Positions 653 to 36,676 of a DNA stretch of 64,000 bases are shown here, piece by piece (positions within the stretch are counted from its first letter, which is position 1; the number at the start of each line of letters is the position of its first letter). Source of the stretch: Patescibacteria group bacterium (GTDB lineage: Bacteria; Patescibacteriota; Microgenomatia; UBA10105; UBA927); contig DATKGN010000004.1 of assembly GCA_035510735.1 (NCBI GenBank), positions 177,039 through 241,038 on the forward strand, in the 5' to 3' direction. The translations under genes and the position numbers were made by a program. The notes under the pieces are model-generated. The model was not told the DNA's origin. It saw nothing but the letters and a program-made list of their open reading frames with translations, and searched no databases.

Positions 653-705
653 TACTGAGTATTTCTTTGAACAATTATCTATTTCAGTGCGAAACTCAAA
701 AAGTG

Positions 706-1861: not shown

Positions 1862-2503
1862 TCACCTCATGAGATCGGCAAATACCACGAGGCGCTTCGT
1901 ATAGGTTTGCTTAGTCTGGTCCCACGCGCCTTCGCAGGTGATGAGGTTGAGGTGCGTCCCATCCTGGCTCGCGAAAATCTTTGATGTATCAACAGATTGG
2001 TCATACGTTTTACTATCCTTCACGATAAATGCGCCGATGTTTCCGAATGCATCTTCAACGCCTATCGCAGCGCCGGGTTTGAGGGATTTGAGCTGCGCAA
2101 ATACGCCGTCTTCCCCGTTTTTCCCATCAACGTGGCCCGCGATAACCGCAGTGCCTGTTTGTCCCGGGCGGGCTCCGAGTTTGTACCATCCGACATCCGT
2201 TATACTATCGGGAACCTGCATGGATCCGTCCTCTGTTACACCCATCGGAAGAATTGTTGCGTTCGTGTGGAGAAGGGGAATCATTAACCGAACTGGGACT
2301 CCGTGAAACGGGGAAATAGACGGGACGGAATCAGGAATCGGAGCCAGAGACGGAGTCGGTGTAGGTGCCTGCGCGTGAACCTCTTTACTTATCCCCAAAT
2401 ATTCCGGTTTTGTATATGCGATTCCTAACAGAAAGAATAAAATCGCAGTAATGCCGAATGAACAGATCAGTGCACTTAGGAGTTTCGTAGGTTTTTTTAC
2501 CGT
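1862..2503 (-). CDS. sortase family transpeptidase (start codon unresolved)
   Basis: TAVIAGH and LITC (catalytic Cys) motifs are present. The reading frame is open upstream to 2503 and encodes a TM anchor (LLSALICSFGITAILFFLLGIAYT), but the first canonical start (TTG) is at 2398, downstream of the TM. Confidence 0.7.
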   Translation of the reverse strand, partial: TVKKPTKLLSALICSFGITAILFFLLGIAYTKPEYLGISKEVHAQAPTPTPSLAPIPDSVPSISPFHGVPVRLMIPLLHTNATILPMGVTEDGSMQVPDSITDVGWYKLGARPGQTGTAVIAGHVDGKNGEDGVFAQLKSLKPGAAIGVEDAFGNIGAFIVKDSKTYDQSVDTSKIFASQDGTHLNLITCEGAWDQTKQTYTKRLVVFADLMR

Positions 2504-16791: not shown

Positions 16792-17760
16792 TCAATTACT
16801 ATGTAACAATACACGATAGAGCGCATCCAGAGGACAGGTGGCCAAACATATTCTTGTATCGGCCCCTCCATAGTAAACGCCGAGATTATTGTTGACGATA
16901 AGTGCTCCGGAGGGAAAAACGATATTGGGAATTTTTCCCTGCACCTCATAGTCCGTTTCTGGGTAGAGAAGCGGCTCCTGAGTTCTCCCTATCACCTTGG
17001 TCGGCTCGTTATTATCAAGTAGCGCCGCCTCAATGGTGAAAAATTTGTGTGACGTCAAATAGCTTTTGATGTAACAGTAAATAAAAAGCCATCCGTATTT
17101 TGTTTGGATCGGCGGCGCTCCGACTTCGACATGGTCATGCGTTGTTCTTAAAAGAGGAATGGTGTGTGTGCTAACTGACCTACGCCATCGTTTCCAATAG
17201 ATGGCGTCCCACATGTCACTTAGTTTTTCAAAATATGCGACACACATACTGGACGGCGGTTTGTCGGGATTAATAGTCAACAGTGCACAATACTTACCGT
17301 TTATCCGCTCGGGGAAAAGCGCCATTGCTTTCGCATTAAAGGGAGTAATTCGGTATTTATGATCAATGGAGATAAAATTTTTGGTTGTTGCAAGAGCTAC
17401 GGTAATACCGGTGGGTGTTGGTGGCCAGTCAGCAAGGGCAGTGTAAAAAATGTAATAGGTATCGCCGATTTTCGTGACCCGAGGATCCTCGCATCCGAAT
17501 TTTTCCCAATCATGTTCCGGTACAATGAGTTGTTTTCTTTTCGTAAATGTAACACGATCGCGGCTTATCGCGTGACCGATGGTCGAAAGTTCAAGTGTTT
17601 TTCCGCCAATTTGCTGCGGGTAGGACTGTGCGCGATATACCATGTGGCACGTATTTCCGTCTATAATCGGACATCCGTTGAATGTCGCTTCCTGTTCCCA
17701 TTCATGAGTATTTACAGGAGAAAGAATCGGGTTTTCGGGGAACCGCTTGAGGGTTACCAT
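16792..17760 (-). CDS. glycoside hydrolase family 130 protein (beta-mannoside phosphorylase/hydrolase-like)
   Basis: FPENPIL..., GCEDPRVTKIGDTYYIFYTA and YYGGAD motifs of the GH130 beta-propeller. Confidence 0.7.
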   Translation of the reverse strand: MVTLKRFPENPILSPVNTHEWEQEATFNGCPIIDGNTCHMVYRAQSYPQQIGGKTLELSTIGHAISRDRVTFTKRKQLIVPEHDWEKFGCEDPRVTKIGDTYYIFYTALADWPPTPTGITVALATTKNFISIDHKYRITPFNAKAMALFPERINGKYCALLTINPDKPPSSMCVAYFEKLSDMWDAIYWKRWRRSVSTHTIPLLRTTHDHVEVGAPPIQTKYGWLFIYCYIKSYLTSHKFFTIEAALLDNNEPTKVIGRTQEPLLYPETDYEVQGKIPNIVFPSGALIVNNNLGVYYGGADTRICLATCPLDALYRVLLHSN

Positions 17761-17773
17761 AGAAGATTATCGA

Positions 17774-19624
17774 TTAATGCAAAACCGGTCGTCCGCCGGA
17801 CGGTGTAAGTGACGCCTCTTCAGAAGTCTTGAGGTGTTCCAGAAATTCATGGATAGGTGCAGTTGCGGCACACGTCACCATATCAGCGCCGCCGTAATAT
17901 ACATGTAATTTGTCATTCATGATCACGGATCCGCACGGATAGGCGACTCCTGCTTTGTATCCTTCATTTTCATACCATTCCGTCGGCTCCAAGATTGGTT
18001 TAACCGACCGGTGCAGGACTTTTGATGGATTCTTGAGATCAAGAAGCATCGCTCCCATTTTATATTTGCTTGGATCCTGATCGCCGACCGCCTGATAGAT
18101 CAGAAGCCATCCGTCATCTGTTTTGATGGGTGGTGCGCCCACGCCGACTTTTCTGCTGTCCCAATAATGCGGTCTTGGTGAAATTTTATCATGACCGGTC
18201 AGCCACCTTGTCTTGCCGTCGAAATCAAGATCATCGACGTAATCAAGAAGGATGTTGGGAAAAATCCGATGGAATACAACATATTTCCCGTCTATTTTTT
18301 CGGGTAGTAAACATGCGTTTTTATTCACCTGGTTCGGTTTTGAGATAAGAACGGGCTTTTTCCAGTTCCAGCGATGTGAGAGAAAGTCATTGACATCGAT
18401 TGATGTTAACGCCACGCGGGGTGGGCTCCAGCCGTCATACGCAACGTACGTCATATAGACCGTTTTGCCGATTTTTGTGAGTCTCGGGTCCTCGCATCCG
18501 CCGTAGCATCCGCCGCCTGAAGCGTAGGGTGAGTATGATGTGTTTTGTGCAAACGGCGTATTACACTCAAATGGTTCCGTTGGCGTATAAATAGGTTCGC
18601 TAAGCCGTTCATCAAAGTTTGTTCCGTCGGCACTTGATGCATAGCCCAATACTGAGACGTCCTGATCTCCGATTGCGCGATATACCATGTGGACACGGCC
18701 CTCCTCATAGAGGGCTCCGGGATTAAAGACTGCGCGAGATTCCCAAAAATGATCCGCAATGGGTTTGATAATCGGGTTATCTTTTATTTTTTTCAACAGA
18801 AACGCTGGAGTACCTCTTTTATATTCACCGAGTTTATTGAAACCAGGATGAGTCAGCGCGAATAGGCCGTCTTTATCGGAAAGCCAGTATGAAATATAGA
18901 GTCCGTGGAACGTGATAACACCGACCGGGTATGCTTCCTTATTCTGCCAATCAGCAGGCGCTTCCCAAATGGGTTCAGGATAGGAGATGAGGAGCTTCTC
19001 CGGGTTTTGTTTATCAAATAGCGCGGCATTGAGGGCAACATGGTGCCCGTCTTTTATGACGTAATAGAGAAGTAAAATTCCGTCATGTGTGACCTCGACA
19101 TGAGCTACTTTGACCGGCCAGACGCCAAAAAAGTCTTTTTGCGGCGTAAGTACAGGCTCTTCTTTTACATTCCACGTCGTGAGATCGGAGGCATATGCGA
19201 CACGGATTGAGCTTTCTCCCACATACATGACTGACGAGTTGTTATATTGATAGTCGCTTACGACAACACCGGTTTCACTGATCCCTTCGGCTCTTCCGAT
19301 CCGCTGCCAACGGATGAGATCTTTTGAGGTGGCGATATACGAGCTGCAATTTTTTTCTTTCCTATATTTATACAGCAACACATACATATTCCCGACGTGA
19401 GCCATGCGGAAATCCTGTGCTTTATGCGGGTTAACATTTCTGCGTTTTTCATCAACAATTTTTGCTTTATCCGTGTGTGAAGCAAAAGAAAATCCGTCAA
19501 GACTGTGATCAGCCTGGTAAAATTTACCGTTTCCGGTGAGCGTATGATAGAGGAAGACACCGTTTTTATCCGCAATAACGCCTAAGGGAGTGGTTTCCTT
19601 TATGATGCGATGAGGGTTTTCCAT
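17774..19624 (-). CDS. double-domain GH130 family protein
   Basis: The C-terminal half carries the GH130 signature (FNPGALYEEGRVHMVYRA, GCEDPRLTKIGKTVYMTYVAYDG, YYGGADM). The N-terminal 290 aa is a second, degenerate GH130-like propeller. Confidence 0.65.
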   Translation of the reverse strand: MENPHRIIKETTPLGVIADKNGVFLYHTLTGNGKFYQADHSLDGFSFASHTDKAKIVDEKRRNVNPHKAQDFRMAHVGNMYVLLYKYRKEKNCSSYIATSKDLIRWQRIGRAEGISETGVVVSDYQYNNSSVMYVGESSIRVAYASDLTTWNVKEEPVLTPQKDFFGVWPVKVAHVEVTHDGILLLYYVIKDGHHVALNAALFDKQNPEKLLISYPEPIWEAPADWQNKEAYPVGVITFHGLYISYWLSDKDGLFALTHPGFNKLGEYKRGTPAFLLKKIKDNPIIKPIADHFWESRAVFNPGALYEEGRVHMVYRAIGDQDVSVLGYASSADGTNFDERLSEPIYTPTEPFECNTPFAQNTSYSPYASGGGCYGGCEDPRLTKIGKTVYMTYVAYDGWSPPRVALTSIDVNDFLSHRWNWKKPVLISKPNQVNKNACLLPEKIDGKYVVFHRIFPNILLDYVDDLDFDGKTRWLTGHDKISPRPHYWDSRKVGVGAPPIKTDDGWLLIYQAVGDQDPSKYKMGAMLLDLKNPSKVLHRSVKPILEPTEWYENEGYKAGVAYPCGSVIMNDKLHVYYGGADMVTCAATAPIHEFLEHLKTSEEASLTPSGGRPVLH

Positions 19625-21527: not shown

Positions 21528-23213
21528 ATGATTCTGCCCGATGATCAGCTTAAGACACTCCTCCTGCAAAGCAATATTCTTCCTCAGGAAAAGCTTGAAG
21601 AGATTGCCGAAAAATCAAAAGCCTCTCAAACAACGCTTGCGAACGGGCTCATTGACGCCGGAGTTCTGACGGACGAACAGATTGGTCAGGTCGTCGCCAG
21701 TAGCTTCAAAGTACCGTTTGTTGCGCTCTCAAAGACATCCATCTTCGAGGACGTTTTTCATATCATTCCTGAAAAAATCGCGCGGAAGCAAAAAACTGTG
21801 GTATTTGCCCGTGACGGTGAGGGTGTCAAAATTGCCATGGCGGAACCAAAAAACACGGATTTACTTGATATGGTAGTCAAAAAGACCAACCAGAAAGTTT
21901 CTGTGTATTACGCGACGGATAAAGATATTGATAATACCCTTCAAATTTATAAAAAAGTCCTCCAAAAAACGATTGACGAGTTATTAAAAGAGGATATTAA
22001 AAAAGCGACGACACTTGTCTCGGATGATTTGCCGATTGCAAAAATTGTTGACGTGCTTCTCGACGCTGCATATCAGGATAAAGCCTCAGATGTCCATATT
22101 GAGCCGGAGGAAAATAATTCGCTTATCCGGTTCCGTATAGACGGAGTACTTCACGACGTACTCCGGGTGCCGAAAGTTCTTCATGATCGTATTATGACAA
22201 GGATTAAAGTGCTCTCGAGCCTAAGAACCGACGAACATATGAGTGCACAAGACGGGAAAATGCGTATGGCGATGGATGAAGAGCAATTAGACATCCGCGT
22301 TTCTATCCTTCCGGTTTCAGAGGGAGAGAAGGCAGTGCTGAGGCTGTTATCCTCCCATTCGCGTGAATACTCATTATCCGATTTAGGTATGATTGAAGGC
22401 GATCTTTTGAAAGTGACTAATTCATATAATAAATCATACGGGATGATTTTATCTACCGGGCCGACCGGATCAGGAAAAACGACATCAATTTATGCCATAT
22501 TAAAAATTCTTAATACCCGGGAAAAGAATATTACAACGATTGAAGACCCTGTCGAATACCGTGTAAAAGGCGCAAGCCAGGTGCAGGTAAATGTGAAGAC
22601 GAACTTAACATTTGCCAACGGTCTTCGATCAATTTTACGTCAGGACCCGAATATAATCTTCGTCGGAGAGATCCGTGACAGCGAAACGGCAAGCATTGCC
22701 GTTAATGCCGCTTTAACCGGTCATTTGGTCCTCTCAACGCTTCATACAAATGATGCAGCAACAGCAATACCGCGGCTTACCGATATGGGCGTTGAGCCGT
22801 TTCTAGTCGCCTCTACAGTAAATCTCATAATTGCCCAACGGCTTCTGCGGAAAATCTGCGATTCATGCAAAACATCGGTAACCATGACGCAGAAAGAGAT
22901 TGAAAAGCATATTCCGCGGTCGGCGATACAAAAACATTTTGGCGCAGAACCCGTGTTAACGATCTATCAGGGAAAGGGCTGTAAAATGTGTCATCATACG
23001 GGATATCTCGGGCGATTGGGTGTGTTTGAAGTCCTTGAAGTATCAAAAGAAATACGGAAACTCATCTCTGAAAAGGCTGACGCAGATGAAATTAATAAAA
23101 AAGCGCAGGATGAAGGGATGAACACGATGCTTGATGACGGACTTGATAAAGTACTTAAAGGATTAACGACGATTGAAGAGGTGTTACGTGTGACGAAAGT
23201 GGAAACATTATGA
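21528..23213 (+). CDS. pilB: type IV pilus / T2SS assembly ATPase (GspE/PilB family)
   Basis: N-terminal GspII domain; Walker A GPTGSGKTTS; Asp and His boxes; C-terminal CxxC...CxxC zinc motif (CDSC...CKMC). Confidence 0.85.
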   Translation: MILPDDQLKTLLLQSNILPQEKLEEIAEKSKASQTTLANGLIDAGVLTDEQIGQVVASSFKVPFVALSKTSIFEDVFHIIPEKIARKQKTVVFARDGEGVKIAMAEPKNTDLLDMVVKKTNQKVSVYYATDKDIDNTLQIYKKVLQKTIDELLKEDIKKATTLVSDDLPIAKIVDVLLDAAYQDKASDVHIEPEENNSLIRFRIDGVLHDVLRVPKVLHDRIMTRIKVLSSLRTDEHMSAQDGKMRMAMDEEQLDIRVSILPVSEGEKAVLRLLSSHSREYSLSDLGMIEGDLLKVTNSYNKSYGMILSTGPTGSGKTTSIYAILKILNTREKNITTIEDPVEYRVKGASQVQVNVKTNLTFANGLRSILRQDPNIIFVGEIRDSETASIAVNAALTGHLVLSTLHTNDAATAIPRLTDMGVEPFLVASTVNLIIAQRLLRKICDSCKTSVTMTQKEIEKHIPRSAIQKHFGAEPVLTIYQGKGCKMCHHTGYLGRLGVFEVLEVSKEIRKLISEKADADEINKKAQDEGMNTMLDDGLDKVLKGLTTIEEVLRVTKVETL

Positions 23214-24262
23214 AAACAGATAACGTGACTCTTTCAAGCAGTGAAAAGTTAGGTCTTATTGGGAGTCTGGCAACCATGTTGACCGCAGGAATTCCTATTC
23301 TCGAAGTAGTTAATTCTCTCCGGGAGGACGCAAAAGGTAATCAGAAAAAAATTCTTGATACAATGATAGAAGATTTGATGCAGGGAAAGCATATTAACCT
23401 CACTCTGTCGAGATTTCCTGGAGTATTTGATAAGGTTACTGTCAACGTTATTAAAGCGTCGGAAGAGGCGGGGACGTTGGACGTTGCCCTTATTGATCTT
23501 AAGCAAACGATACAAAAAGAAATAGAGTTTAACGATAAAGTACGTTCTGCTCTCATCTACCCCGTATTCATTATTATGATATTTTTCGCCGTACTTCTTA
23601 TGATTCTTATTGTCGTTGTTCCGAAAATCAGCACCGTGTTTTCACGTTTACACGTTGTACTGCCGCTTCCGACAAGAATTATGATTTTTTTGTCTAATCT
23701 TATCCTCGATCATACACTCCTTGTTGTCGTATCCTCGATTATCGTTGTCGTCGGTGTGTATTTTTTATATAAACAACAAAAAGGTATTATTATGGAACTT
23801 CTTTTCCGGTTGCCGGTTGTTTCCAAGCTCGTCCAGGAGATTGATATAACAAGGTTTTCGCGGAGTCTCTATTTGTTACTATCATCGGGACTTCCTATTA
23901 CGGCGGCTCTTGAATTAACGAAGGATGTTGTGGTGCGGAGGAAAACTGCGCAGATTATCTCATCGTCGCGTGAGATGGTGTTTGCCGGTAAGCCCCTTTC
24001 AGAAGGTTTTCGTGCTGCAAAAGGATATATTCCTTCTATTATGATCAAACTCATGGAGGCAGGTGAAAAAACAGGATCGCTGGACCGTTCTATGCAGGAT
24101 GTTTCTGAATATTTCGACTATGAGGTAACCAATACCCTTAAGTTGTTAACCGCGCTACTTGAACCAATTCTTCTCGTTCTTGTCGGTGTGGTCGTTGGAG
24201 GTATGATGCTTTCGATAATCGGGCCTATTTATGGAATGATCGGTCAGGTCGGCGCGCATTGA
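23210..24262 (+). CDS. pilC: type II secretion system F family platform protein (PilC/GspF)
   Basis: Two GspF repeats and a 3-TM topology. ATGA overlap with pilB. Confidence 0.85.
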   Translation: MKTDNVTLSSSEKLGLIGSLATMLTAGIPILEVVNSLREDAKGNQKKILDTMIEDLMQGKHINLTLSRFPGVFDKVTVNVIKASEEAGTLDVALIDLKQTIQKEIEFNDKVRSALIYPVFIIMIFFAVLLMILIVVVPKISTVFSRLHVVLPLPTRIMIFLSNLILDHTLLVVVSSIIVVVGVYFLYKQQKGIIMELLFRLPVVSKLVQEIDITRFSRSLYLLLSSGLPITAALELTKDVVVRRKTAQIISSSREMVFAGKPLSEGFRAAKGYIPSIMIKLMEAGEKTGSLDRSMQDVSEYFDYEVTNTLKLLTALLEPILLVLVGVVVGGMMLSIIGPIYGMIGQVGAH

Positions 24263-24266
24263 TATT

Positions 24267-24746
24267 ATGAAACAACGCGGGTTCGTGTTTATGGAACTTA
24301 TTATCGTTTTTGCGGTGGTCGCCATACTTGCGAGTATTTCCGTCATCAATATATTCGGGTCAAAACGAAAGGCATCACTCACGGGGACTATAGATCCGCT
24401 TCTTGCTGATATCAAGAGCCAACAGACCAAAGCGATGGAAGGGTCCATCGCGAACGGAAGCGCTCAGGCTGCATTCGGAGTTCATTTTGCATCAAATCAA
24501 TACGTACTGTTTAACGGCGCTACGTATAACGGATCTGACAGTGCAAACGCCGTAGTTCCTCTTGATTCTCGTGTTACGTTCAGTACGATATCCTTGCCAA
24601 GTAATACTATTGTTTTCGCTTCGAAAAGTGGGGAGGTTGTAGGGTATGCGACGAATTCAAGTACCCTAACGGTAAAACAAATTGACAGCGGAGAAATTCA
24701 AACAATTAAGCTTAATCATTATGGTGTTATCACATCGGCTCAATAA
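24267..24746 (+). CDS. prepilin-type N-terminal cleavage/methylation domain protein (minor pilin)
   Basis: Class III signal KQRG|FVFMELIIV with Glu at +5. Confidence 0.7.
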   Translation: MKQRGFVFMELIIVFAVVAILASISVINIFGSKRKASLTGTIDPLLADIKSQQTKAMEGSIANGSAQAAFGVHFASNQYVLFNGATYNGSDSANAVVPLDSRVTFSTISLPSNTIVFASKSGEVVGYATNSSTLTVKQIDSGEIQTIKLNHYGVITSAQ

Positions 24747-27165
24747 CACGCGGTTTGGATCACGCGGTCAACTTCTCGTGGAGTTGCTCCTTGCTATGGC
24801 AATTTCGGCAATTATGCTTCCGGCGCTTCTTGTTGGACTCGTGGCATCGCGTCAGGGGAAAGCCCAACAAAGTGAACGTCTTGATGCCACGACACTCTCG
24901 AAAGAAGCATACGATATTATCCGTATTATCCGTGAGCAGGGCTGGTCGAATGTGTCAGCGGACGGTACCTATTACCCGGTTCTCAACGGGAATTCGTGGT
25001 CGCTTGCAACGGGGTCTGCGCAGGTTGGTGAGTTTACACGGTACCTAACGATAACGGATGTATACCGCAACGCGTCAACAGGCGCAATCGCAACGTCTGG
25101 TGGAGTACTTGACCCCTCGACGAAGAAAATCATTATCACCGTCATATGGAATTCTCCGATCGCTTCAAGCGTGAGCGCTACCTATTATCTCGCACGGACC
25201 GATAATGCAGTATTTACCCAAACCAGTTATGCGGATTTTAATGCTGGGACAAAGACGAACGTTCAGGTTGATAACCCAACTGATGGTCAGGTGCAGCTTT
25301 CCAATAACACGAAAGGACAATGGTGTAAGCCTTCATTTTCAAGCGCTACAATAACCCTTCCGGATGGGCCGCCCGTTGCGGTTGCTGCCTACGCCGATCC
25401 CAATACGACCAGTAATCCTAATAAAGTATTTGTTGCTGATTCTTCAACAGCTGCGACATCGACAAAATTGGCCTATTTGACGGTGACCGCAAATACCGAT
25501 CCGCCGGTGCCCACGCTTCAGGGGACGTTTACCATGGATTCATCTAAGTACAGTAATTCAAACCTTGTTCCTACAGGAACGGGTTTAGATAATTCATTTA
25601 TTACCAACCAAGTAAAGTATTATAAATCATCATCCGGCAAAACGTATGCGCTCCTTGCAACCACAAAGCCGGATAAAGAGATTATCGCAATTTTAGTCGA
25701 TGACGGCGATCCATCCAATGACAACACCAACAACGGTGAGTTTCAGGATCATGTCAATCACATCTATAAATACTGGACATTTTTTAATACGCGCATCTAT
25801 CAAGGCACGGGAACGCAGGATCAGGCGCCGTATGCCGGTGGGGCATCTTCCTTGGCAGTCTATCAAAATACAGGATATGTCACTTCGGGTGGATTCCTCT
25901 ATGTGTTTGATTTAAGTAATATTGACAGTAAGTCAGCTAGCAACGGGTTGGATATGGTTGGATGCCGAATAGAATTGGACGGAGATGACTGTAATGCCTC
26001 GACAAGTAAAGTCCGAAAATACGCGGCCGGGAATACCGGGACAAATTGGGGTTCTGAATCGGCAGGACAAACTGGTTGTATGGACGGCGGTAATACCGAA
26101 ATATATGCGGATAACGATATTTATCCTGTGCAGGTCGGTGGCAATACGTACGTTTATGTCGCCGTAGGAGCAGGAGTAGATCCTGAATTTAACATTGCGA
26201 ATGTTACCAGTGTTCCGACAGGAAGTTCAAATCCGACAATCAGCAATAGTAAATGCGGGACAATCGCAAATGGAAATGCAGCATGGAAACGGGTGAGTAG
26301 TTATGATTTCAACTCTGCTTCAAATACTCAGGAGACCGCAAATTCCGTGTTCGGAAGCGCGGATGGGACGCGTGCATTTATTTCGTCAAACGGCACGGTA
26401 GACGGTAATCACGACGGAAAGCCGGATAGCGATCAATTCTACGTTATCGATACGTCCGACAAAAATAATCCTAAATTTTTATCGGGAACACCCTCAACGG
26501 GGGCTCAGAGCGGGTATTACTTAGGAACGGGTGCAGATGTGCAGTTGTACCCGCGCCGGTCAGTCACAGTGTTTGGGGACTCCCGTGCGCTACTGGCTGG
26601 AATAGACGGCGTATCCGACAGCAATAATGCTGAAGAATACCAGGTACTCAATATCAGCAATCAATCGTCTCCGTCCTATTGCGGTGGCCTACAGTTTGAT
26701 CAGGGAATAAACGACATGACCTCAATTTCCGAAGCAGACGGCGACAAGTTTGTCTATATGATAGCCAATACCACGGTCAATGAATTGAAAATCATACAGG
26801 GGGGACCGGATGGAAATTATCTGGATAGCGGGACGTATGAATCAGCAATCATCAATATGAATGCGCCGGTGACGTTCAATCGTTTTGATGTTGATGAAAA
26901 TTTACCGGCAAATACGAGTATTCAGTACCAAGTTGCAATTGCTAATCCCGTCAGCGGGAGCTGCACGAATGCAAACTATGTATTTATTGGACCTGATGGA
27001 TCGAACAATACAAAATTCGCGACCGGTAGCGCCTTACCGCTTAATAACAGCGGAACGGGATATAGAAATCCCGGACAATGTCTCAAATACCGCGCATTTT
27101 TATCAACGACCAACTATAACGTGACTCCGACATTACTGGATATTACCTTTAATTTTTCTCCATGA
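24721..27165 (+). CDS. giant pilin-like protein (prepilin N-terminus plus about 750-aa Thr/Ser/Asn/Gly-rich C-terminal region)
   Basis: GSRG|QLLVELLLAMAI with Glu+5, then a large region of predicted beta-rich repeats. Start at ATG 24721 overlaps the preceding pilin gene. Confidence 0.6.
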   Translation: MVLSHRLNNTRFGSRGQLLVELLLAMAISAIMLPALLVGLVASRQGKAQQSERLDATTLSKEAYDIIRIIREQGWSNVSADGTYYPVLNGNSWSLATGSAQVGEFTRYLTITDVYRNASTGAIATSGGVLDPSTKKIIITVIWNSPIASSVSATYYLARTDNAVFTQTSYADFNAGTKTNVQVDNPTDGQVQLSNNTKGQWCKPSFSSATITLPDGPPVAVAAYADPNTTSNPNKVFVADSSTAATSTKLAYLTVTANTDPPVPTLQGTFTMDSSKYSNSNLVPTGTGLDNSFITNQVKYYKSSSGKTYALLATTKPDKEIIAILVDDGDPSNDNTNNGEFQDHVNHIYKYWTFFNTRIYQGTGTQDQAPYAGGASSLAVYQNTGYVTSGGFLYVFDLSNIDSKSASNGLDMVGCRIELDGDDCNASTSKVRKYAAGNTGTNWGSESAGQTGCMDGGNTEIYADNDIYPVQVGGNTYVYVAVGAGVDPEFNIANVTSVPTGSSNPTISNSKCGTIANGNAAWKRVSSYDFNSASNTQETANSVFGSADGTRAFISSNGTVDGNHDGKPDSDQFYVIDTSDKNNPKFLSGTPSTGAQSGYYLGTGADVQLYPRRSVTVFGDSRALLAGIDGVSDSNNAEEYQVLNISNQSSPSYCGGLQFDQGINDMTSISEADGDKFVYMIANTTVNELKIIQGGPDGNYLDSGTYESAIINMNAPVTFNRFDVDENLPANTSIQYQVAIANPVSGSCTNANYVFIGPDGSNNTKFATGSALPLNNSGTGYRNPGQCLKYRAFLSTTNYNVTPTLLDITFNFSP

Positions 27166-27647
27166 AACATAATCGCGGGTTTACGATTGTTGAACTCCTA
27201 ATTTATTCCGCCATTCTTGTCGCTTTTTTGTATATTATGACGAACATTTTTACGGAAACGCTTGATATGCAGCTTGAGTCGGAAACGGCAAGCGCGGTAA
27301 GCCAGGACAGCCGATATATTCTTTCAAGATTAAGTTACGATATTGCCCGTGCATCATCAATCACGCAGCCGGCATCACTTGGTCAACAGACAAGCTCGCT
27401 CGTCCTGCGGATTGGCCCCGCAACATATACATACGCATTATCAAACGGCAACCTATTACTCACGGACCCAATTGAGACGGGAGCGCTCAATAGTTACGGG
27501 TCAACGGTATCAAATCTCACGTTCCGCAGGTACGGGAACGTGAACGGAAAACCAAGCGTCCGTTTAACGTTCACACTCGCCAGCGTTGCACAACGAACGA
27601 GTGGCGCACAGTCAGAGGATTTTGAAGCAACGTATGGAACACGGTAA
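27162..27647 (+). CDS. prepilin-type N-terminal domain protein (minor pilin)
   Basis: MKHNRG|FTIVELLIYSAILVAF with Glu+5. ATGA overlap with the upstream gene. Confidence 0.7.
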   Translation: MKHNRGFTIVELLIYSAILVAFLYIMTNIFTETLDMQLESETASAVSQDSRYILSRLSYDIARASSITQPASLGQQTSSLVLRIGPATYTYALSNGNLLLTDPIETGALNSYGSTVSNLTFRRYGNVNGKPSVRLTFTLASVAQRTSGAQSEDFEATYGTR

Positions 27648-28032
27648 TCAAAAGAATACAGTTAGTCGATCTAATGGGCAGGCGCTTGTTGTATTATTGT
27701 TTTACATGATCATTGCTATTACCATTGCAACGACCGCGGTTGCTGTTGTTGTATCTAATTCGCTTTCAGTCACGAGAAGTGAAGACGGAATAGTCGCGAT
27801 GGATATCGCGGAAACGGGCGGTGAAAATGCCATCATCCGGCTTCTTCGTGATACGAATTATACCGGAGAAACATTAGCGATAGGGGACGGAAGCGCAGTC
27901 GCGACAGTAAGCGGTACGACAACAAAAACAATTACATCTATGGGTACTGTGAATGGTTCATCCAGAACGGTGCAAATTGTTGCAACCTTGACGAATGGTG
28001 TATTAACCGTGACGTCCTGGCAGGAATTATAA
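27634..28032 (+). CDS. pilin-like protein lacking Glu+5 (GspK/PilX-like minor pilin)
   Basis: SRSNG|QALVVLLFYMIIAITIATTAVAVVV hydrophobic N-terminus. Position +5 is Val. ORF opens at 27586. Confidence 0.5.
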   Translation: MEHGNQKNTVSRSNGQALVVLLFYMIIAITIATTAVAVVVSNSLSVTRSEDGIVAMDIAETGGENAIIRLLRDTNYTGETLAIGDGSAVATVSGTTTKTITSMGTVNGSSRTVQIVATLTNGVLTVTSWQEL

Positions 28033-28034
28033 TT

Positions 28035-28709
28035 ATGTTTAATCAAAAATATATTATTCTTTTTATAGATAGAAATCGTTTCTATCTCTGTAGCGGCGTG
28101 GTGTCAAATATCGCACTCCTTGATGTTCCTGAATCAATACTTCATGATCTGGAAATAATTCAGAAAGACGGATTTTATACACTTATTAAACAATGGGTAA
28201 AGGAATATGCGCTCATCGGCTCTCAACTTATTATCATTCTTTCAACGAGAACATATTTTGAAAAATTATTATTAACTGCTGAGCACGATCAAATAGAAAG
28301 CGATATTCTGAGATTTTTTGACACTGTTCCGTATGAGTCAATATGGACAAAAGTATATCCTGTAGATAAGGGAAAACGTGCGGTCGTACTCAATAAATCT
28401 CTTTATGAAGCGCTTTATCAGGGATTTGCCCTCCAGGGGGTAACAGAAAAGGCGATATTGCCGGAATTTGTCCTTGGGCCATTAGCAGGGAAGCAGACCT
28501 TGACTTCAGAAGCCGCAGAATATGTATTTAAAAACATTGATCTCCTCGCAAAACAAAGCCTGTTGGATATCCAGGAGAGTATCACTGCCTCTCAGCCGCC
28601 GAGAGATGAGACGGCTGTTCCTAAAAAGAAATCTAATCTTCAGGCCTTGTTGGGCGTTTTTGGTGTATTGATTCTCATATTAGCTATCTTACTTCTCACA
28701 CGACATTAA
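28035..28709 (+). CDS. hypothetical protein with C-terminal TM anchor, pilus-locus associated
   Basis: In the operon between the minor pilins and the major pilin. C-terminal TM LGVFGVLILILAILLL. No known motif. Confidence 0.4.
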   Translation: MFNQKYIILFIDRNRFYLCSGVVSNIALLDVPESILHDLEIIQKDGFYTLIKQWVKEYALIGSQLIIILSTRTYFEKLLLTAEHDQIESDILRFFDTVPYESIWTKVYPVDKGKRAVVLNKSLYEALYQGFALQGVTEKAILPEFVLGPLAGKQTLTSEAAEYVFKNIDLLAKQSLLDIQESITASQPPRDETAVPKKKSNLQALLGVFGVLILILAILLLTRH

Positions 28710-28763: not shown

Positions 28764-29237
28764 ATGAAACACTATCTGCCTGTTGGGCGTCGGGGCTTTA
28801 CGCTCATCGAGTTACTTGTTGTCATCGGTATCTTGGCGGTACTTTTGGCAATTACATTGATCGCCATAAATCCTGCACGTCAATTTGCGCAGGCGAATAA
28901 TACCAAGCGTGCTAGTGATGTCAATGCGCTTTTGAACGCAATTGATCAGTACGCTGCGGACAATAAAGGTGCGCTTCCAGCTGGAATTGACACCACGGTG
29001 AAGAATATTAGCGACACCGGTGCCAATATTTGTGATGCTTTAATCACAAAATACCTGGCTGCGCTTCCGGTCGATCCATTAACAAGTAATGGAACGCCGA
29101 TATCACAGGTGAGCGGCGCATGTCCGACACCGTATGATACAAATTATACGGTCATCAAGAGCGCGAATGATAACCGCATAACCGTATCAGCTCCGGCGAC
29201 AGAGCTTGGAGTAGCGGCAATCTCGGTGACGAGATAA
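28764..29237 (+). CDS. pilA: type IV major pilin (PilA-like)
   Basis: Canonical RRG|FTLIELLVVIGILAVLLAI N-terminus with Glu+5. Followed by a strong intrinsic terminator. Confidence 0.75.
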   Translation: MKHYLPVGRRGFTLIELLVVIGILAVLLAITLIAINPARQFAQANNTKRASDVNALLNAIDQYAADNKGALPAGIDTTVKNISDTGANICDALITKYLAALPVDPLTSNGTPISQVSGACPTPYDTNYTVIKSANDNRITVSAPATELGVAAISVTR

Positions 29238-31809: not shown

Positions 31810-34410
31810 TTATGGAGCCGGAGTCGGGCTTCCTGTTGGTGTTGGTGTCGGGATTGGCGCACATCTGCCGCCCGGCGGCTCAGTGCCTGCAATAAAGTAT
31901 TCAGGGCGGTTAAAATAACACGGTACTGCGATAACGTCGTCAGGTTTTGCGGCAACTTCATCCGGTTTATTTTTGAGAAGCTCGGTCATAATATCATGCC
32001 AAATCGGTGCGGCTCCTGTTATCCCCGATGTTAAATACGGATTCATCGGCGCATTATTATTGTTTCCCACCCAAACCGCAACGACGACAGAAGGAGTATA
32101 TCCAATGGTCCAATTGTCGCGTTTGTCGTTTGTCGTTCCGGTTTTAACCGAAACGGTTTTCCCGCTCACTACCAAGCTTGAGTTCGGACCGAATTCAGTA
32201 ATTCTCGCGGTATTGTCGCTTAAAATATTACTCAGGATCCATGCAACTTCCGGTTTGACCGCCTGAACGGGAGGAGTAGGTGTATCTTTTTCGTATACAT
32301 GTCCCGTATAGTCAGTGACTTCGAGAATCGGGTTGAGATCAACCCTGTCGCCAAGATTCGCAAGCGTTCCAAAGACCTTTGTCATATCAAGCATTGTGAC
32401 GTCACCTCCACCTAATGTAAGCGATAGGCCATATTGGCTTGAATCTTCCCACGTGGTGATTCCCATAAGTTTTCCCTTATTGACCATTGTTTGTACACCG
32501 ATACTGTTTAACACTTTTACCGCAGGAATATTAAATGAATTCCCGAGGGCATAGCGAAGCGGTGTCGGTCCATGAAATTTGCCGTCATAGTTAACAGGAG
32601 CGTACGGGGTGCTCCCCACGTTTTGATACACAACAGGTGAATCATCAAGGATTGACGCTGCAGTAAACCCATTTTCAAGGGCAGCTGCATAGTTAACAAC
32701 TTTTATTGATGAACCGGGTTGCCGAAGACTTGTTGTGACGTTCACATTGCCGTCAATATTGGTATCGAAAAAGTCTTTACTTCCGACCATCGCAAGAATT
32801 TCTCCGGTTCTAGGGCTTGTGACCATCGCAGCACCATTGCCGACCTGAAGATTGGCAAGAGCATTTACTTGATTCGTTACGATATCCTGTACTTTATTTT
32901 GGATTGATAAATCCAATGACGTCGTGACACGAAGACCTCCCTGTTCGACAAGACGTGGTCCATACCGCTGTTCCAAAATATTTCGCACATACATAACAAA
33001 ATGCGGTGCCTGGATGGAGACTCTGGGTTCAATAAATTTAACGGGTGTTGCAAGAGCAAGTTGTTCCTGTTCGCTGGTGATATCATGATCTTCTGTCATT
33101 CGGCGTAGCACCTCTTTTTGGCGTTCAAAGGCTTTTTCGGGGTGTTCGCCGAACGGTGAATATTCAGATGGAGCGGCCGGGAGCCCCGCAAGGAGCGCCG
33201 CTTCGGCAAGATTTAGATCTCTTGCGGATTTTCCGAAATAGGCCTGACTTGCCGCCTCCACACCCCACGCAGTGCCGCCGTAGGGAACTTGGTTAAGATA
33301 CATTTCAAGAATCTGGTTTTTCGTATAGAGTCGTTCTGCCCAAAATGCTAAAAAAATTTCTTTCAGTTTTCGTGTGACGCTCACCTCAGGTGACAACAAA
33401 GCAGATTTGATAAGCTGCTGCGTGATCGTTGAGCCTCCCTGAATTTGATTATTAAAGAGTGTTTCCCGGGCCGCCCGAACGATTCCAGGGATCGAGACAC
33501 CTTGGTGATGATAAAAGTCTTTGTCTTCTATTGCGATAGTTGCTTCCTGTAAATCTTGCGGAATTTGTGTAAGCGGGAGTGGCGTGCGGTTTTGGTCAGC
33601 GTAAATTTCAAATAATAACGCCCCGTTCCGGTCAAAGATTTTAGTAGTCACTTGGAGGTCCCGTCGGGTTAACAGTTGGGGGTTGGGGAGCATTTTGAGC
33701 CATTGATAGGTGGTGTACGGGGTGAAGAAAAAAACAACCGTTACTGCGATTCCCGCGACAAACGATTTCACTTGTTCTATAAAAGGGCGCTGTAATTTTT
33801 TTCCGTGTTCGAAAATTACAATCGGTTTATTTGCAGGCTCTGAAATATTAAATTTCGGAAACGAAATTTTAGGAATTTGCAGTTTAGGTGGATTCCAGGA
33901 GGATTTAGCAATTTGTGCAAGTTCCCGTTCTTTTTCCAATTTTTTCTGTTTGAGTTTTCCCCGGAGTTCGCGATGCTCCTTTGCAGTTATTTGCATTGAT
34001 GTAAAACGCGTGCGGGTTGTTTGCCAAATTGATGACAGGAGAACAAACGGAAATTTGATGATTGAAGAGAAAATTTCTTCAGTACTGGAAAAAAATCTTC
34101 TGGACCTTTGTGACCATGAATTCCGATAGGATTCTATGCTCACTGAAATCAATATTGTTTTTTTGGGTCTCCCAGGCGGGCGCCTGTATTGAAATGATGT
34201 TGCTATTCGATCCACGAGCCGTCCGCATTGATCCGCCCCTGATTTTATCAAAGAAACGAGCGCGTTATAGGTCCGTACCGGTAGTAAAAAAACGGACCGA
34301 AAAAAGAAGCGTACAACATCACCGATTGCGATGAATATGCGCAAAATAAAAATGATCACCAATACAATAAACCCTCTTTGAGGGTAATTTTGACCGTTTG
34401 GATACTTCAT
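31810..34410 (-). CDS. class A penicillin-binding protein (transglycosylase + transpeptidase) with long N-terminal cytoplasmic extension
   Basis: GT51 motifs EDKDFYHHQG and GGSTITQQL. Transpeptidase SSIK (SxxK) and KTG. About 200 aa of charged N-terminal region precede the TM. Confidence 0.85.
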   Translation of the reverse strand: MKYPNGQNYPQRGFIVLVIIFILRIFIAIGDVVRFFFRSVFLLPVRTYNALVSLIKSGADQCGRLVDRIATSFQYRRPPGRPKKTILISVSIESYRNSWSQRSRRFFSSTEEIFSSIIKFPFVLLSSIWQTTRTRFTSMQITAKEHRELRGKLKQKKLEKERELAQIAKSSWNPPKLQIPKISFPKFNISEPANKPIVIFEHGKKLQRPFIEQVKSFVAGIAVTVVFFFTPYTTYQWLKMLPNPQLLTRRDLQVTTKIFDRNGALLFEIYADQNRTPLPLTQIPQDLQEATIAIEDKDFYHHQGVSIPGIVRAARETLFNNQIQGGSTITQQLIKSALLSPEVSVTRKLKEIFLAFWAERLYTKNQILEMYLNQVPYGGTAWGVEAASQAYFGKSARDLNLAEAALLAGLPAAPSEYSPFGEHPEKAFERQKEVLRRMTEDHDITSEQEQLALATPVKFIEPRVSIQAPHFVMYVRNILEQRYGPRLVEQGGLRVTTSLDLSIQNKVQDIVTNQVNALANLQVGNGAAMVTSPRTGEILAMVGSKDFFDTNIDGNVNVTTSLRQPGSSIKVVNYAAALENGFTAASILDDSPVVYQNVGSTPYAPVNYDGKFHGPTPLRYALGNSFNIPAVKVLNSIGVQTMVNKGKLMGITTWEDSSQYGLSLTLGGGDVTMLDMTKVFGTLANLGDRVDLNPILEVTDYTGHVYEKDTPTPPVQAVKPEVAWILSNILSDNTARITEFGPNSSLVVSGKTVSVKTGTTNDKRDNWTIGYTPSVVVAVWVGNNNNAPMNPYLTSGITGAAPIWHDIMTELLKNKPDEVAAKPDDVIAVPCYFNRPEYFIAGTEPPGGRCAPIPTPTPTGSPTPAP

Positions 34411-34483
34411 ACGGGCTGCAGTAAGCGTTTATACCACAATCTATAGGCCCTAACAAGAGGCTAATGGTATAGAGACAATCGGG

Positions 34484-36676
34484 TTATTTAATGAGGATCG
34501 GTTTATTATCCTGATGTTGACAGTCAAGACACCACTGGGATAGGCCATCATTAAGCACGGGATGAACCTGTGTCTCGACAGGATCAGTCGTGCCTGGCTC
34601 TGCGATATCCCCGGTTGATTTATCAATAATCACGGGTTGTTGCAGTTGTTCCTTTTGGGTCGGCACGGTCCCTTTGATGAAATATTCAAACCGTATCGGA
34701 CAACCAGGATCTCCCTGATCGTTTGGCGGCATTAACCCTGATACAGAACAAATTCGAGCGCCGACAACGCCATCCGGCATTGTCGGCCAAAGATCCAGCT
34801 TCCCCTGAAGCACTTTGACCATTAATTTGTGCCAAATAGGTGCTGCCCCGGTTATTCCTGAAACAAGCGCAGGATTCATGGGACTATTGTCATTATTACC
34901 GACCCAGGTTGCGACCAAAAACTGCGGAGTAAAGCCAATGGTCCAGTTGTCACGCAGATCGTCCGTTGTGCCGGTTTTCACCGATACGGCATGGTTGGGT
35001 ATGACAAGTTCAGAATCGGACCCAAATTCGGCCGTCCGCGCATTATTATCCAACAGTATGTGTGAGATAAGAAATGCCGTCTCGGGAGAGATAACCCGTG
35101 ATCCTTGGAGCAAAAGATGTGAGGGGATATCTTTGCCAAGATTTGGATCTTTATCTTCCTCCAGAACATTTCCATTTTTATCTGTCACTTTGAGAATCGA
35201 AACGAGGTCTTTACGGATTCCGCCGTTTGCAAATACCCCGAACGCTTCAGCCATATCGGTCATATGGACCTCAGCGCCTCCCAACGTCAGTGATAACCCG
35301 TATTTACTCGGATCCTTGAGCGTCGTAAGACCAAATGCGCTGGCTGATGCGATCATGGTAGTCACCGTATTGAGCTTGAGCATTTTTACCGCCGGTATGT
35401 TAAATGAATTACCGAGCGCCATACGAAGCTGAACCGGCCCGTGGAATTTGCCGTCATAATTATGCGGGCAGTAGAGCGGTTGGTTAACGACTCCGAAGCA
35501 GGTAGGCTCGTCTAAAAACATGGTGGCCGGAGTCACGATATGGTTTTCTATGCCGATGGCATAATTAATGGGTTTAATGGATGATCCCGGTTGCCGAAGC
35601 GCGGTTGTGACATTGTAGCTCCCTGAGGGCGAGGCGAAATAGTCAGTGCTGCCGACCATTGCAAGAATTTCGCCGGTAGCCGGTTTTGTGATGAGTGCGG
35701 CACCGTTTGAAACCCGATATCCTTTCAGATTCGCAACTTCAGCGGCAAGCGTTGCCTGTGCATACTCCTGAAGATCCAGATCAAGCGTCGTCGTCACTTT
35801 GAGTCCTCCGCGTTCGACCATAGCATCGCCGTATTTTTGAACCAAAAGATCTTTGACGTACATTACAAAATGTCCGGCTTTCAGTTCCGATTGCTTCTTA
35901 AAATGAAGCGGTTCATTGAGAGCCTGATTTTCCTGTGTCTGTGTAATATAGCGATCTTCAACCATACGCGTTAATACCTCTTTTTGTCGTACGGTTGCAT
36001 ATTCCGGATGGGCGCCGAATGGAGAATATAAGGATGGCGCCTGAGGAAGTCCTGCAAGAAGTGAGCATTCCGCAAGATCGAGATCCTTCACTTTTTTACC
36101 AAAATATCGTTCAGCTGCTGACTCGACGCCCCACGCCGTGCCGCCATAGGGGACTTGATTGAGGTAGAGTTCGAGAATTTTATTTTTTGAGTAAAGAGTT
36201 TCCACCCAAACAGCCAAAATCGCTTCCCTGATTTTTCTGGTGATCGTTTGTTGTGATGAGAGGAGCGCTAATTTGACCAGTTGTTGTGTGATCGTCGAAC
36301 CTCCCTGCACTTCATGTCGTGTGACCATCGCCGCGATGGCCCGAAGCACTCCTCCGACTGGATTAATGCCGGCGTGATGGTAAAAATCTTTATCCTCAAT
36401 GGATATCGTTGCCTCCTGCAGATATTTGGGAATTTCCGAAAGTGGGACTGCGGTTCTGTTTTGGTCGGCGAATATATCATAAATTAATTTTCCGTTTCGA
36501 TCGTAGATTTTGGTAGCTAGCGGAATATCATATTTTCCAAGTGATGTTGGGGACGGAAGGTCCTTCAGTATGAGCACATACACCATAAATATCATGATGA
36601 GCGGCAAAAGCCAAAATGCCCATTTGATAATTTTTAACGTTGAAGAAAATTGTTTTGAATGAAGATTTTTTTTCAT
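34484..36676 (-). CDS. class A penicillin-binding protein (second paralog)
   Basis: EDKDFYHHAG and GGSTITQQL (GT51). SSIK and KTGT (transpeptidase). Single N-terminal TM. Confidence 0.85.
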   Translation of the reverse strand: MKKNLHSKQFSSTLKIIKWAFWLLPLIMIFMVYVLILKDLPSPTSLGKYDIPLATKIYDRNGKLIYDIFADQNRTAVPLSEIPKYLQEATISIEDKDFYHHAGINPVGGVLRAIAAMVTRHEVQGGSTITQQLVKLALLSSQQTITRKIREAILAVWVETLYSKNKILELYLNQVPYGGTAWGVESAAERYFGKKVKDLDLAECSLLAGLPQAPSLYSPFGAHPEYATVRQKEVLTRMVEDRYITQTQENQALNEPLHFKKQSELKAGHFVMYVKDLLVQKYGDAMVERGGLKVTTTLDLDLQEYAQATLAAEVANLKGYRVSNGAALITKPATGEILAMVGSTDYFASPSGSYNVTTALRQPGSSIKPINYAIGIENHIVTPATMFLDEPTCFGVVNQPLYCPHNYDGKFHGPVQLRMALGNSFNIPAVKMLKLNTVTTMIASASAFGLTTLKDPSKYGLSLTLGGAEVHMTDMAEAFGVFANGGIRKDLVSILKVTDKNGNVLEEDKDPNLGKDIPSHLLLQGSRVISPETAFLISHILLDNNARTAEFGSDSELVIPNHAVSVKTGTTDDLRDNWTIGFTPQFLVATWVGNNDNSPMNPALVSGITGAAPIWHKLMVKVLQGKLDLWPTMPDGVVGARICSVSGLMPPNDQGDPGCPIRFEYFIKGTVPTQKEQLQQPVIIDKSTGDIAEPGTTDPVETQVHPVLNDGLSQWCLDCQHQDNKPILIK

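Follow-up and report, generated by a model that had tools for sequence, protein, structure and literature searches.

A prepilin-type front, a predicted seven-bladed beta-propeller and a predicted C-terminal jelly roll are joined in a single chain of 814 residues, which Microgenomates (candidate phyla radiation) strongly conserve as a component of their pilus operon. On balance we regard this protein as probably a modular minor type IV pilin, which would belong to the complex that primes the pilus and forms its tip, displaying a PilY1-like, calcium-dependent module for binding a conserved ligand. The original prediction was of a pilus-tip adhesin or host-attachment factor. Its core, a large pilin fusion with binding-type modules, has held up, while its picture of a low-complexity, variable and host-specific determinant has not.

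A prepilin gene within a pilus operon

The gene lies in a DNA stretch of 64,000 nucleotides, analysed as a whole (the window, whose numbering is used here and in Table 1), within the gene order pilB-pilC-pilin-814-residue pilin-pilin-(pilin without Glu+5)-p224-major pilin. Judged from its sequence, with gene overlaps of 4, 26, 4 and 14 nt, the operon is translationally coupled. As expected of a type IV pilin, the 814-residue protein is encoded together with an assembly ATPase, a platform protein and the major pilin; Pfam recognises PilB and PilC, and the locus holds three more pilins of N-methyl type. Most of 74 Microgenomates loci share this gene order (pilB in 61, pilC in 65, the adjoining pilins in 64-71), and a 1.2-Mb Gottesmanbacteria contig carries the identical pil arrangement. 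Many loci bear the title 'uncultured Gammaproteobacteria'; these were treated as placeholder labels, because every informatively named relative belongs to Microgenomates or Patescibacteria.

The open reading frame is uninterrupted from a TTG at 24682 to the stop, and before the Gly of the cleavage site it offers just three in-frame starts: that TTG, ATG 24721 and GTG 24724. In all four relatives compared, ATG 24721 is unchanged, and the codons that follow it differ mostly at third positions (Gly-1 as GGT, GGC or GGA; Gln+1 as CAA or CAG; Glu+5 as GAG or GAA), which is the behaviour of coding sequence. The product from this ATG has 814 residues; the original coordinates of the reading frame stand, and the 815 residues first claimed correspond to the codon count with the stop included.

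The N-terminus reads MVLSHRLNNTRFGSRG followed, across the cleavage site, by QLLVELLLAMAISAIMLPALLVGLVA, with Gly at -1, Glu at +5 and a mature start of QLLVE. A short basic leader ending in Gly (...RFGSRG), about 20 hydrophobic residues and Glu+5 together constitute a class III signal, that of type IV pilins (PF07963/TIGR02532/IPR012902). Of the 120 top-ranking relatives in the database, 107 have the prepilin motif, 80 of them with Gly followed by Gln, and the remaining 13 are gene calls cut at an internal Met. Glu21, which is Glu+5, is invariant in an alignment of 82 sequences. With the conserved ATG, these counts bear out the canonical prepilin leader that had been proposed, the one departure being Gln at +1 in place of the usual Phe or Met. 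The possibility that this segment belongs to the small pilin gene upstream fails: that 159-residue pilin has its own signal (MKQRG, then FVFME) and ends in a different frame at TAA 24744-24746, 26 nt inside the larger gene. The 26-nt overlap is kept in relatives, and a Gottesmanbacteria genome is annotated identically.

Table 1. Features of the modular pilin and its operon, in window coordinates
Feature	Position	Strand	Basis
PilB-type assembly ATPase	21528..23213	+	Pfam T2SSE 1e-127, MshEN
PilC-type platform protein	23210..24262	+	Pfam T2SSF 7e-44
159-aa minor pilin (G/FVFME)	24267..24746	+	Weak GspH/ComGD-like matches; 26-nt overlap with 814-aa pilin gene
Modular minor pilin gene (814 aa)	24721..27165	+	Stop 27163-27165; ORF; ATG kept in relatives; at least 410 homologues
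Class III (prepilin) leader, residues 1-16, Gly-1 at end	24721..24768	+	Sequence; Gly16 at least 90% conserved; motif in relatives
Mature N-terminal alpha-1 helix, residues 17-72, Glu+5 = residue 21	24769..24936	+	AF2 helix 15-72
Pilin beta-sheet head, residues 73-176	24937..25248	+	AF2 strands 82-167; sub-threshold ComGE/GspI/XpsI matches
Predicted seven-bladed beta-propeller, residues ~177-707, acidic, net charge -25	25249..26841	+	
Dx[DN]xDGxxD calcium-blade motif DGNHDGKPD, residues 561-569, loop between strands 551-555 and 573-577	26401..26427	+	Translation
Predicted C-terminal jelly roll (discoidin/CBM32/galactose-binding-like), residues 708-814, invariant Cys748 and Cys787	26842..27162	+	
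161-aa minor pilin (G/FTIVE)	27162..27647	+	Start overlaps stop of 814-aa pilin gene by 4 nt
132-aa pilin-like protein, G/QALVV, without Glu+5	27634..28032	+	PilX/GspK/ComGG-type feature
224-aa conserved protein (p224), C-terminal membrane anchor	28035..28709	+	No family match (Pfam, NCBIfam)
157-aa major pilin (RRG/FTLIE)	28764..29237	+	Pfam N_methyl 1.3e-7; TIGR02532 3.6e-8

We tried to class the 161-residue neighbour as GspJ-like and the 132-residue neighbour as GspK-like. The former gave a mixture of ComGD/E/F and 'Verru_Chthon cassette C' matches, and PilX_N was matched by only 1 of 14 members of the latter; with matches so mixed and sparse, an H-I-J-K order is putative, drawn from gene order and the missing Glu+5. 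A scan of the operon for promoters and terminators yielded no more sites than shuffled sequence, and the 64-kb window contains no gene for a prepilin peptidase or PilT, no tRNA genes and no Rfam elements.

Predicted architecture and family assignment

The AF2 model of the full-length protein, with a mean pLDDT of 86.4, opens with the lollipop fold of a pilin (helix 15-72 and strands 82-167; block-mean pLDDT 73-92 over residues 21-170). For the large remainder, for which either a beta-propeller or a beta-helix had been envisaged, the model gives a seven-bladed beta-propeller and, as a candidate for the lectin-like domain to be looked for, a discoidin/CBM32-like jelly roll at the C-terminus. A pilin module is here combined with folded non-pilin modules (propeller 177-707, jelly roll 708-814), of which a modular pilin needs at least one. 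The calcium blade DGNHDGKPD is conserved in 74 of the 82 aligned sequences (by position, D561 in 74, N/D563 in 72, D/N565 in 72, G566 in 74 and D569 in 80), and the eight Cys residues (202, 415, 424, 453, 512, 654, 748 and 787), each invariant in the family, likely form four disulfides.

The composition of the protein, in which Ser, Thr, Asn and Gly account for 38% of residues, had been read as low-complexity beta-repeat sequence. Both parts of that reading were rejected: a search of the 814 residues for tandem repeats returned nothing meaningful, and only 8 of 794 20-residue segments fall below 2.8 bits, 7 of them within the hydrophobic helix. The confidence of the model and a mean column identity of 52% in the 82-sequence alignment also contradict it.

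When the whole protein and a family profile were compared with Pfam, NCBIfam and PDB sequences, only weak N-terminal pilin matches were obtained. There was no Pfam match for the protein at E<=0.1, and the propeller and jelly roll are covered by no family in Pfam, NCBIfam or the PDB sequences. In particular, the PilY1/PilC C-terminal domain (PF05567) gave no Pfam match and no PDB sequence match even with the family profile, and RCC1 repeats gave no Pfam match in the protein. Its TIGR02532 score of 10.1 bits lies below the curated N-methyl cut-off of 16.3, a shortfall that the unusual Gln+1 would fit; PF07963 was matched by 12 of 20 relatives at E<=1 (best 4e-6). Residues 1-185 of 20 members produced sub-threshold matches to ComGE in 18 (best 1.4e-6; 14.0 bits for the 814-residue protein itself against a cut-off of 49), to GspI in 7 and to XpsI in 6. 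One relative carries the NCBI name 'PilV family protein'. For the GspI/PilV/ComGE class (models TIGR01707, TIGR02523 and NF041013) all matches are below curated cut-offs and mostly within the helix, and the putative GspI/PilV assignment of the pilin module rests on them.

Comparison with known pilus systems

Modular pilins are known from Streptococcus sanguinis, in which PilB has a vWA module and PilC a lectin module (Raynaud et al. 2021, PMC8179133; PMC9934059), and the grafted module of such pilins is presented at the tip (PMC8179133). As in PilB and PilC, the 814-residue protein begins with a class III signal and small pilin module and continues into bulky functional modules, and the whole is a minor pilin of a pilus operon in a cell without an outer membrane, so that tip display and ligand binding would be expected. 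The differences are a seven-bladed propeller and discoidin-like jelly roll, unrecognised by signature databases, Gln at +1, and the lack of any sequence relationship.

A second likeness is to PilX2 and PilX1 of Nanosynbacter lyticus TM7x (Saccharibacteria), also Patescibacteria, with the largest pilin of the locus at issue in both cases. Efficient host binding by TM7x requires PilX2, a minor pilin whose propeller has seven blades, whereas filament formation does not, and the TM7x pilins are poorly conserved in other Patescibacteria phyla (PMC11623550). The propeller of PilX2 is C-terminal and PilX1 has a jelly-roll-like domain; the 814-residue pilin joins both module types in one chain. Unlike PilX2 as described, it has no detected RCC1 repeats, and its class III signal is clear, whereas PilX2 lacks a predicted PilD signal.

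The propellers of PilY1, integrin and fungal lectins bind calcium through a linear Dx[DN]xDGxxD motif, which in PilY1 is required for piliation, and calcium blades are known also in rhamnogalacturonan lyase (PMC3123361). Pilus assembly is primed by minor pilins together with PilY1, which then remain at the tip (PMC8833165). The PilY1/PilC tip proteins (PF05567/IPR008707) resemble the 814-residue protein in having a propeller of seven blades, here predicted, that bears a Dx[DN]xDG site, and in being encoded with four core minor pilins; priming followed by residence in a tip complex mediating adhesion would be expected here too. The PilY1/PilC proteins are non-pilins with a type I signal peptide, whereas the 814-residue protein combines a class III signal with a pilin module.

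Of the sub-threshold matches of that module, those to ComGE, GspI and XpsI are the commonest. Among the four minor pilin genes of its operon, that of the 814-residue protein comes second, a position held in their own operons by gspI and comGE, although GspI, PilV and ComGE have only ~100-130 residues and no additional module. CofB and TcpB, the type IVb minor pilins that start assembly and work at the tip, are likewise large and have beta-rich C-terminal domains, including a beta-sandwich, but their domains are different and without a propeller, and they share no sequence similarity and belong to another pilus class and to Gram-negative hosts. YVTN-type seven-bladed propellers such as Escherichia coli YncE and Leptospira Lp49 are free periplasmic or surface proteins of a family whose models the 814-residue pilin does not match, and their ~300-residue propellers compare with ~530 residues and much longer loops in the latter.

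Conservation, proposed role and alternatives

In conservation the 814-residue pilin, among the best-conserved products of its operon, is close to PilC and far above the other minor pilins, the median identities over 42 loci being 55%, 59% and 36-44%, respectively. Because dS is saturated for all relatives except the closest, only dN ranks and a single dN/dS value are usable: relative to locus L022, dN is 0.151 for the pilin and 0.194 for PilC, and relative to L001, dN/dS is 0.035, or ~0.09 when dS is taken from neighbouring genes. The protein is under strong purifying selection, with dN/dS at most about 0.09. Within the subfamily the entire chain is conserved, the propeller core more than the pilin module. 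In the wider family, relatives of ~620-700 residues retain residues 1-267 and ~540-810 with divergent middle blades, and many relatives have an extra domain of 173-222 residues inserted after residue 362. This domain is 64% identical among its carriers and, in the ~980-residue relatives, matches nothing in Pfam.

From these observations and the precedents above, a course of events may be proposed. Prepilin peptidase would cut off the 16-residue leader, and the alpha-1 helix would dock with three small minor pilins, including the one without Glu+5, a trait of GspK/PilX/ComGG. The resulting complex would prime polymerisation of the 157-residue major pilin and, having been laid down first, would remain at the distal tip. 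There the propeller and jelly roll (~68 kDa), probably too bulky for the filament body, would form a cap that depends on calcium to bind its conserved surface ligand, which is most likely a glycan. Functionally, the protein would be akin to a PilY1-type tip protein covalently fused to a minor pilin of the GspI/PilV position. It most likely forms the pilus tip, and an adhesive role there is the most plausible, since propeller and discoidin/CBM32-like jelly roll are binding-type modules. A bolder version, which we offer tentatively as a possible but doubtful extension, is that Microgenomates have fused the job of a separate PilY1 onto this minor pilin, so that one chain primes and caps with a calcium-gated propeller; the extreme conservation would on this view reflect a universal target or catalysis at the tip, where a widespread cell-wall glycan might be cut or gripped, and not adhesion to particular hosts.

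Conservation on a par with machinery proteins and a fixed place in the operon could also signify a purely structural priming or capping subunit with no role in ligand binding. Its calcium-blade motif would then serve stability or an extension-retraction switch, as in PilY1, whose piliation is controlled by calcium binding. We consider this unlikely, since an exposed propeller and discoidin-like jelly roll of 640 residues far exceed the needs of a cap, and TM7x forms filaments without PilX2.

An adhesin that diversifies rapidly, is host-specific and decides to which host cell an episymbiont attaches would be in keeping with the binding-type modules, the TM7x PilX2 precedent, the divergent middle blades of the shorter relatives and the insertion in many others. 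Yet the variability looked for among homologues proved to be strong conservation under purifying selection: the subfamily conserves the whole chain, its identity exceeds that of the other minor pilins, dN is below that of PilC, and even the inserted domain is conserved among its carriers. Moreover, episymbiosis is unproven for this lineage of uncultivated Microgenomates, and the window encodes a near-complete pathway for de novo purine synthesis. No evidence marks the protein as a variable attachment determinant, and such a role is improbable.

Still less credit attaches to a role as receptor for DNA at the tip of a competence-type pilus, comparable to that of Thermus ComZ or of the minor pilins that serve as DNA receptors. 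Among sub-threshold families, ComGE does fit the pilin module best, and the operon resembles comG, which runs from ATPase through platform to minor pilins. The mature protein, however, is strongly acidic (pI 4.5, with the negatively charged propeller of Table 1), no DNA-binding motif was found in its 814 residues, and the purine pathway weakens any argument from nucleotide scavenging. Very improbable, too, is a pilus-displayed enzyme whose propeller, of glycosidase or lyase type, would modify a polymer or the wall of a target cell and whose jelly roll would be the carbohydrate-binding module. A propeller with a CBM32-like module is a common layout among carbohydrate-active enzymes, rhamnogalacturonan lyase has calcium blades, and the invariant positions of the propeller include many acidic, Arg, Trp and Tyr residues; but neither the protein nor its family profile matched an enzyme family in Pfam, NCBIfam or PDB sequences, and the top fold matches are non-catalytic WD40-type scaffolds. 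Finally, a non-pilin translated from Met26, with the hydrophobic segment as a plain signal anchor, is scarcely credible: the JGI call for an identical protein (P0001) does begin there (ATG 24796), with a GGAG 13 nt upstream, but this GGAG is the Val-Glu(+5) codon pair, the 25 preceding residues are conserved as protein with synonymous variation, and ATG 24721 is invariant whereas Met26 is replaced by Leu or other residues in many relatives, including L002 and L003, in which Leu makes such a start impossible.

The modular minor pilin favoured here would extend a known kind of protein, resembling the modular pilins of S. sanguinis and the PilX2 of Saccharibacteria. Modular pilins are under-counted, because their extra modules have no database signature and gene callers often drop the pilin signal. 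Nearly all Patescibacteria have type IV pili, the leading candidates for how such very small cells locate partners and keep hold of them; to our knowledge, only the pilins of Saccharibacteria have been studied so far. Microgenomates now gain a defined, high-confidence structural model of a probable tip subunit, with testable sites in its calcium blade, its four likely disulfides and its lectin-like domain. The unexpected conservation suggests that the family either recognises one ligand throughout the class or is essential to assembly.

Start codon and prepilin signal

At the locus of the propeller pilin, a modular minor pilin, the window contains a single long ORF (24682-27165, +), in which TTG 24682, ATG 24721 and GTG 24724 are the only in-frame starts 5' of the putative cleavage Gly. 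Because it is unchanged in four relatives of 70-88% identity, among which the codons that follow differ mostly at third positions, ATG 24721 was taken as the start, yielding 814 residues. The N-terminus, MVLSHRLNNTRFGSRG/QLLVELLLAMAISAIMLPALLVGLVA (slash, putative cleavage), has the Gly-1 and Glu+5 of a class III (prepilin) signal. The original prediction had proposed such a signal, and the motif recurs in 107 of the 120 best database relatives, the other 13 being calls similarly truncated. One of these, P0001, is a 100% identical protein whose JGI call begins at Met26; the GGAG 5' of that start is the Val-Glu(+5) codon pair in the window, and residue 26 is Leu in the homologous loci L002 and L003. 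Internal-Met starts, which remove the signal, are frequent among gene callers in this region (24721-24800; also P0010, P0012, P0014-P0017, P0023, P0027, P0039, P0040, P0059 and P0065).

By its own refutation test, the original prediction would fall if the prepilin segment belonged to the small pilin upstream. The sequences argue otherwise: the 159-aa gene has a separate signal at its own N-terminus, and its TAA stop (24744-24746) lies 26 nt into the propeller pilin gene but out of frame with it. This overlap is kept in relatives, and the gene calls of a 1.2-Mb Gottesmanbacteria contig reproduce it.

Prepilin peptidase substrates normally carry Phe or Met at +1, and Gln is unusual. Here +1 is Gln in 80 of the 107 motif-bearing family members (24766-24771) and in the neighbouring 132-aa pilin-like protein (27676-27681).

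Features of the window; identity is the median best-HSP value over the 42 loci having all eight operon genes
Feature	Position	Strand	Identity	Remark
LigD 3'-phosphoesterase domain protein	1293-1859
401-aa protein	2497-3702	-		ice-binding-like (DUF3494) domain, E 3e-48
GH130 and class A penicillin-binding protein gene pairs	16792-19624 and 31810-36676	-
pilB	21528-23213	+	64%
pilC	23210-24262	+	59%
159-aa pilin	24267-24746	+	36%
Propeller pilin	24721-27165	+	55%
 helix	residues 15-72			AlphaFold2 model
 small beta head	residues 82-167			AlphaFold2 model
 large all-beta domain	residues ~177-707			AlphaFold2 model; ~28 strands in seven groups
 beta-sandwich (jelly roll)	residues 711-813			AlphaFold2 model
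161-aa pilin	27162-27647	+	41%
132-aa pilin-like protein	27634-28032	+	44%	G/QALVV, without Glu+5
224-aa anchored protein (p224)	28035-28709	+	26%
157-aa major pilin	28764-29237	+	60%
Purine cluster	39786-61448	mostly -		PurM-like, PurC, PurE, PurB, PurQ, PurL, PurF-like, PurA; two archaeal-type PurP-like ATP-grasp genes (DUF1246/DUF1297); PfkB-kinase::PurD fusion, nucleoside phosphorylase, IMPDH, GuaA

Predicted fold and family variation

The protein had also been described as low-complexity beta-repeat sequence, a description that does not hold. Ser, Thr, Asn and Gly make up 38% of residues, local entropy departs from normal only in the hydrophobic helix and in a single 20-residue window at residue 238, and real tandem repeats are absent. 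Pfam, NCBIfam and PDB sequence searches gave no match past the N-terminal helix; the AlphaFold2 model, built with the family alignment, has a mean pLDDT of 86.4. In the loop joining strands 551-555 and 573-577, DGNHDGKPD matches the Dx[DN]xDG-xx-[DE] 'calcium blade' pattern of propellers in PilY1, integrin-alpha, rhamnogalacturonan lyase and a fungal lectin (PMC3123361). Of the 82 family members, 74 keep the motif and eight have a deletion at that point.

When residues 1-185 of 20 members were searched for a pilin-module class, the most frequent sub-threshold matches were to ComGE (18 members, with E down to 1.4e-6), the prepilin peptidase-dependent protein PRK10557 (nine), the generic N-methyl domain TIGR02532 (eight), GspI (seven) and XpsI (six), and NCBI labels one relative 'PilV family protein'. 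Membership of the GspI/PilV/ComGE class is likely but unproven. The family already bears the database names 'hypothetical protein', 'PulG' and 'PilV family'; a literature search yielded no publication on it.

When 1.84 billion representatives were searched with a profile, 370 proteins matched at E<=1e-30, rising to 2558 at E<=1e-10. Many wider relatives are 620-700 aa long, retaining residues 1-267 and ~540-810 with divergent middle blades, while 31 of the 82 close relatives (~38%) carry a conserved insert of 173-222 aa after residue 362. Variation is thus modular and not diffuse, touching the middle blades and a single site of insertion. The inserted domain is beta-rich, contains Cys and matches no Pfam family; its copies share 64% identity, and carriers (among P0018-P0117) measure ~970-1035 aa, and the insertion point corresponds to 25806/25807.

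Operon context and evolutionary constraint

The gene sits within a tightly packed pil operon, whose order is preserved in nearly all of the 74 loci found by scanning one genome per species. Informatively named records are Levyibacteria, Gottesmanbacteria, Woesebacteria, Shapirobacteria and Roizmanbacteria, all Microgenomates; three further records (L017, L056, L062) are labelled Saccharibacteria or Saccharimonadales. The closest are L001 (88% identity) and a Gottesmanbacteria MAG (80%) that also shares flanking genes with the window. The title 'uncultured Gammaproteobacteria/Pseudomonadales bacterium' stands on most MAG records of related loci; since they carry a Microgenomates-type operon at 50-88% identity, such titles appear to be placeholders or taxonomic errors.

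Across 82 aligned sequences, mean column identity is 52%, with ~90 invariant columns that include all eight Cys; conservation is even over the chain, peaking in the core (residues 180-700). In comparison with L022, the propeller pilin has a dN of 0.151, lower than that of PilC (0.194) and those of the small minor pilins and p224 (0.29-0.36). With L001 as comparator, its dN/dS is 0.035 (0.08/2.26), or ~0.09 with the neighbours' dS of ~0.93. Taken as a whole, the gene shows strong purifying selection.

Other genes merit mention. Encoded after the minor pilins and before the major pilin, p224 has a C-terminal membrane anchor, is kept in 53 of 74 operons and matched no family in Pfam or NCBIfam; it may be a component for alignment or assembly that has escaped recognition. 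The operon is flanked by GH130 mannoside-phosphorylase and class A penicillin-binding protein genes, each an adjacent pair, a neighbourhood retained in the Gottesmanbacteria MAG. Elsewhere, one cluster encodes a near-complete de novo purine pathway with the IMP-to-GMP/AMP steps, which is unusual for Patescibacteria, a group usually portrayed as unable to make nucleotides.

Proposed function

Signal, predicted fold, operon and constraint come from the analyses above, and the mechanism is inferred from systems already characterised. [quoted passage not shown] Modular pilins of S. sanguinis display grafted modules for adhesion (PMC8179133), and Saccharibacteria PilX2, a propeller-bearing minor pilin, is needed for efficient host binding and not for filament formation (PMC11623550). 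By analogy, the propeller pilin would be a tip-displayed subunit of the Microgenomates pilus, anchored within the priming complex by its alpha-1 helix; propeller and jelly roll would be its binding modules for a conserved ligand that is probably a glycan, and calcium may stabilise or gate the propeller.

Less probable alternatives are a pure structural cap, a tip enzyme and a mis-started non-pilin. A role as host-specificity determinant is countered, in the form of a fast-evolving factor, by conservation in identity rank, dN and dN/dS, and one as DNA receptor by the acidic charge of the mature protein (~85 kDa, pI 4.5).

In function, the protein would resemble PilY1 fused onto a minor pilin. 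Membership of the PilY1 family was rejected: there is no PF05567 match, the signal is class III whereas that of PilY1 is type I, and PilY1 is not among the top fold matches. PilX2 of TM7x would work similarly but has RCC1 repeats, of which none were detected in the propeller pilin. The protein does qualify as a modular type IV pilin, and its interest rests on an architecture without database signature, a confident model, unexpectedly high conservation and a directly testable calcium blade.
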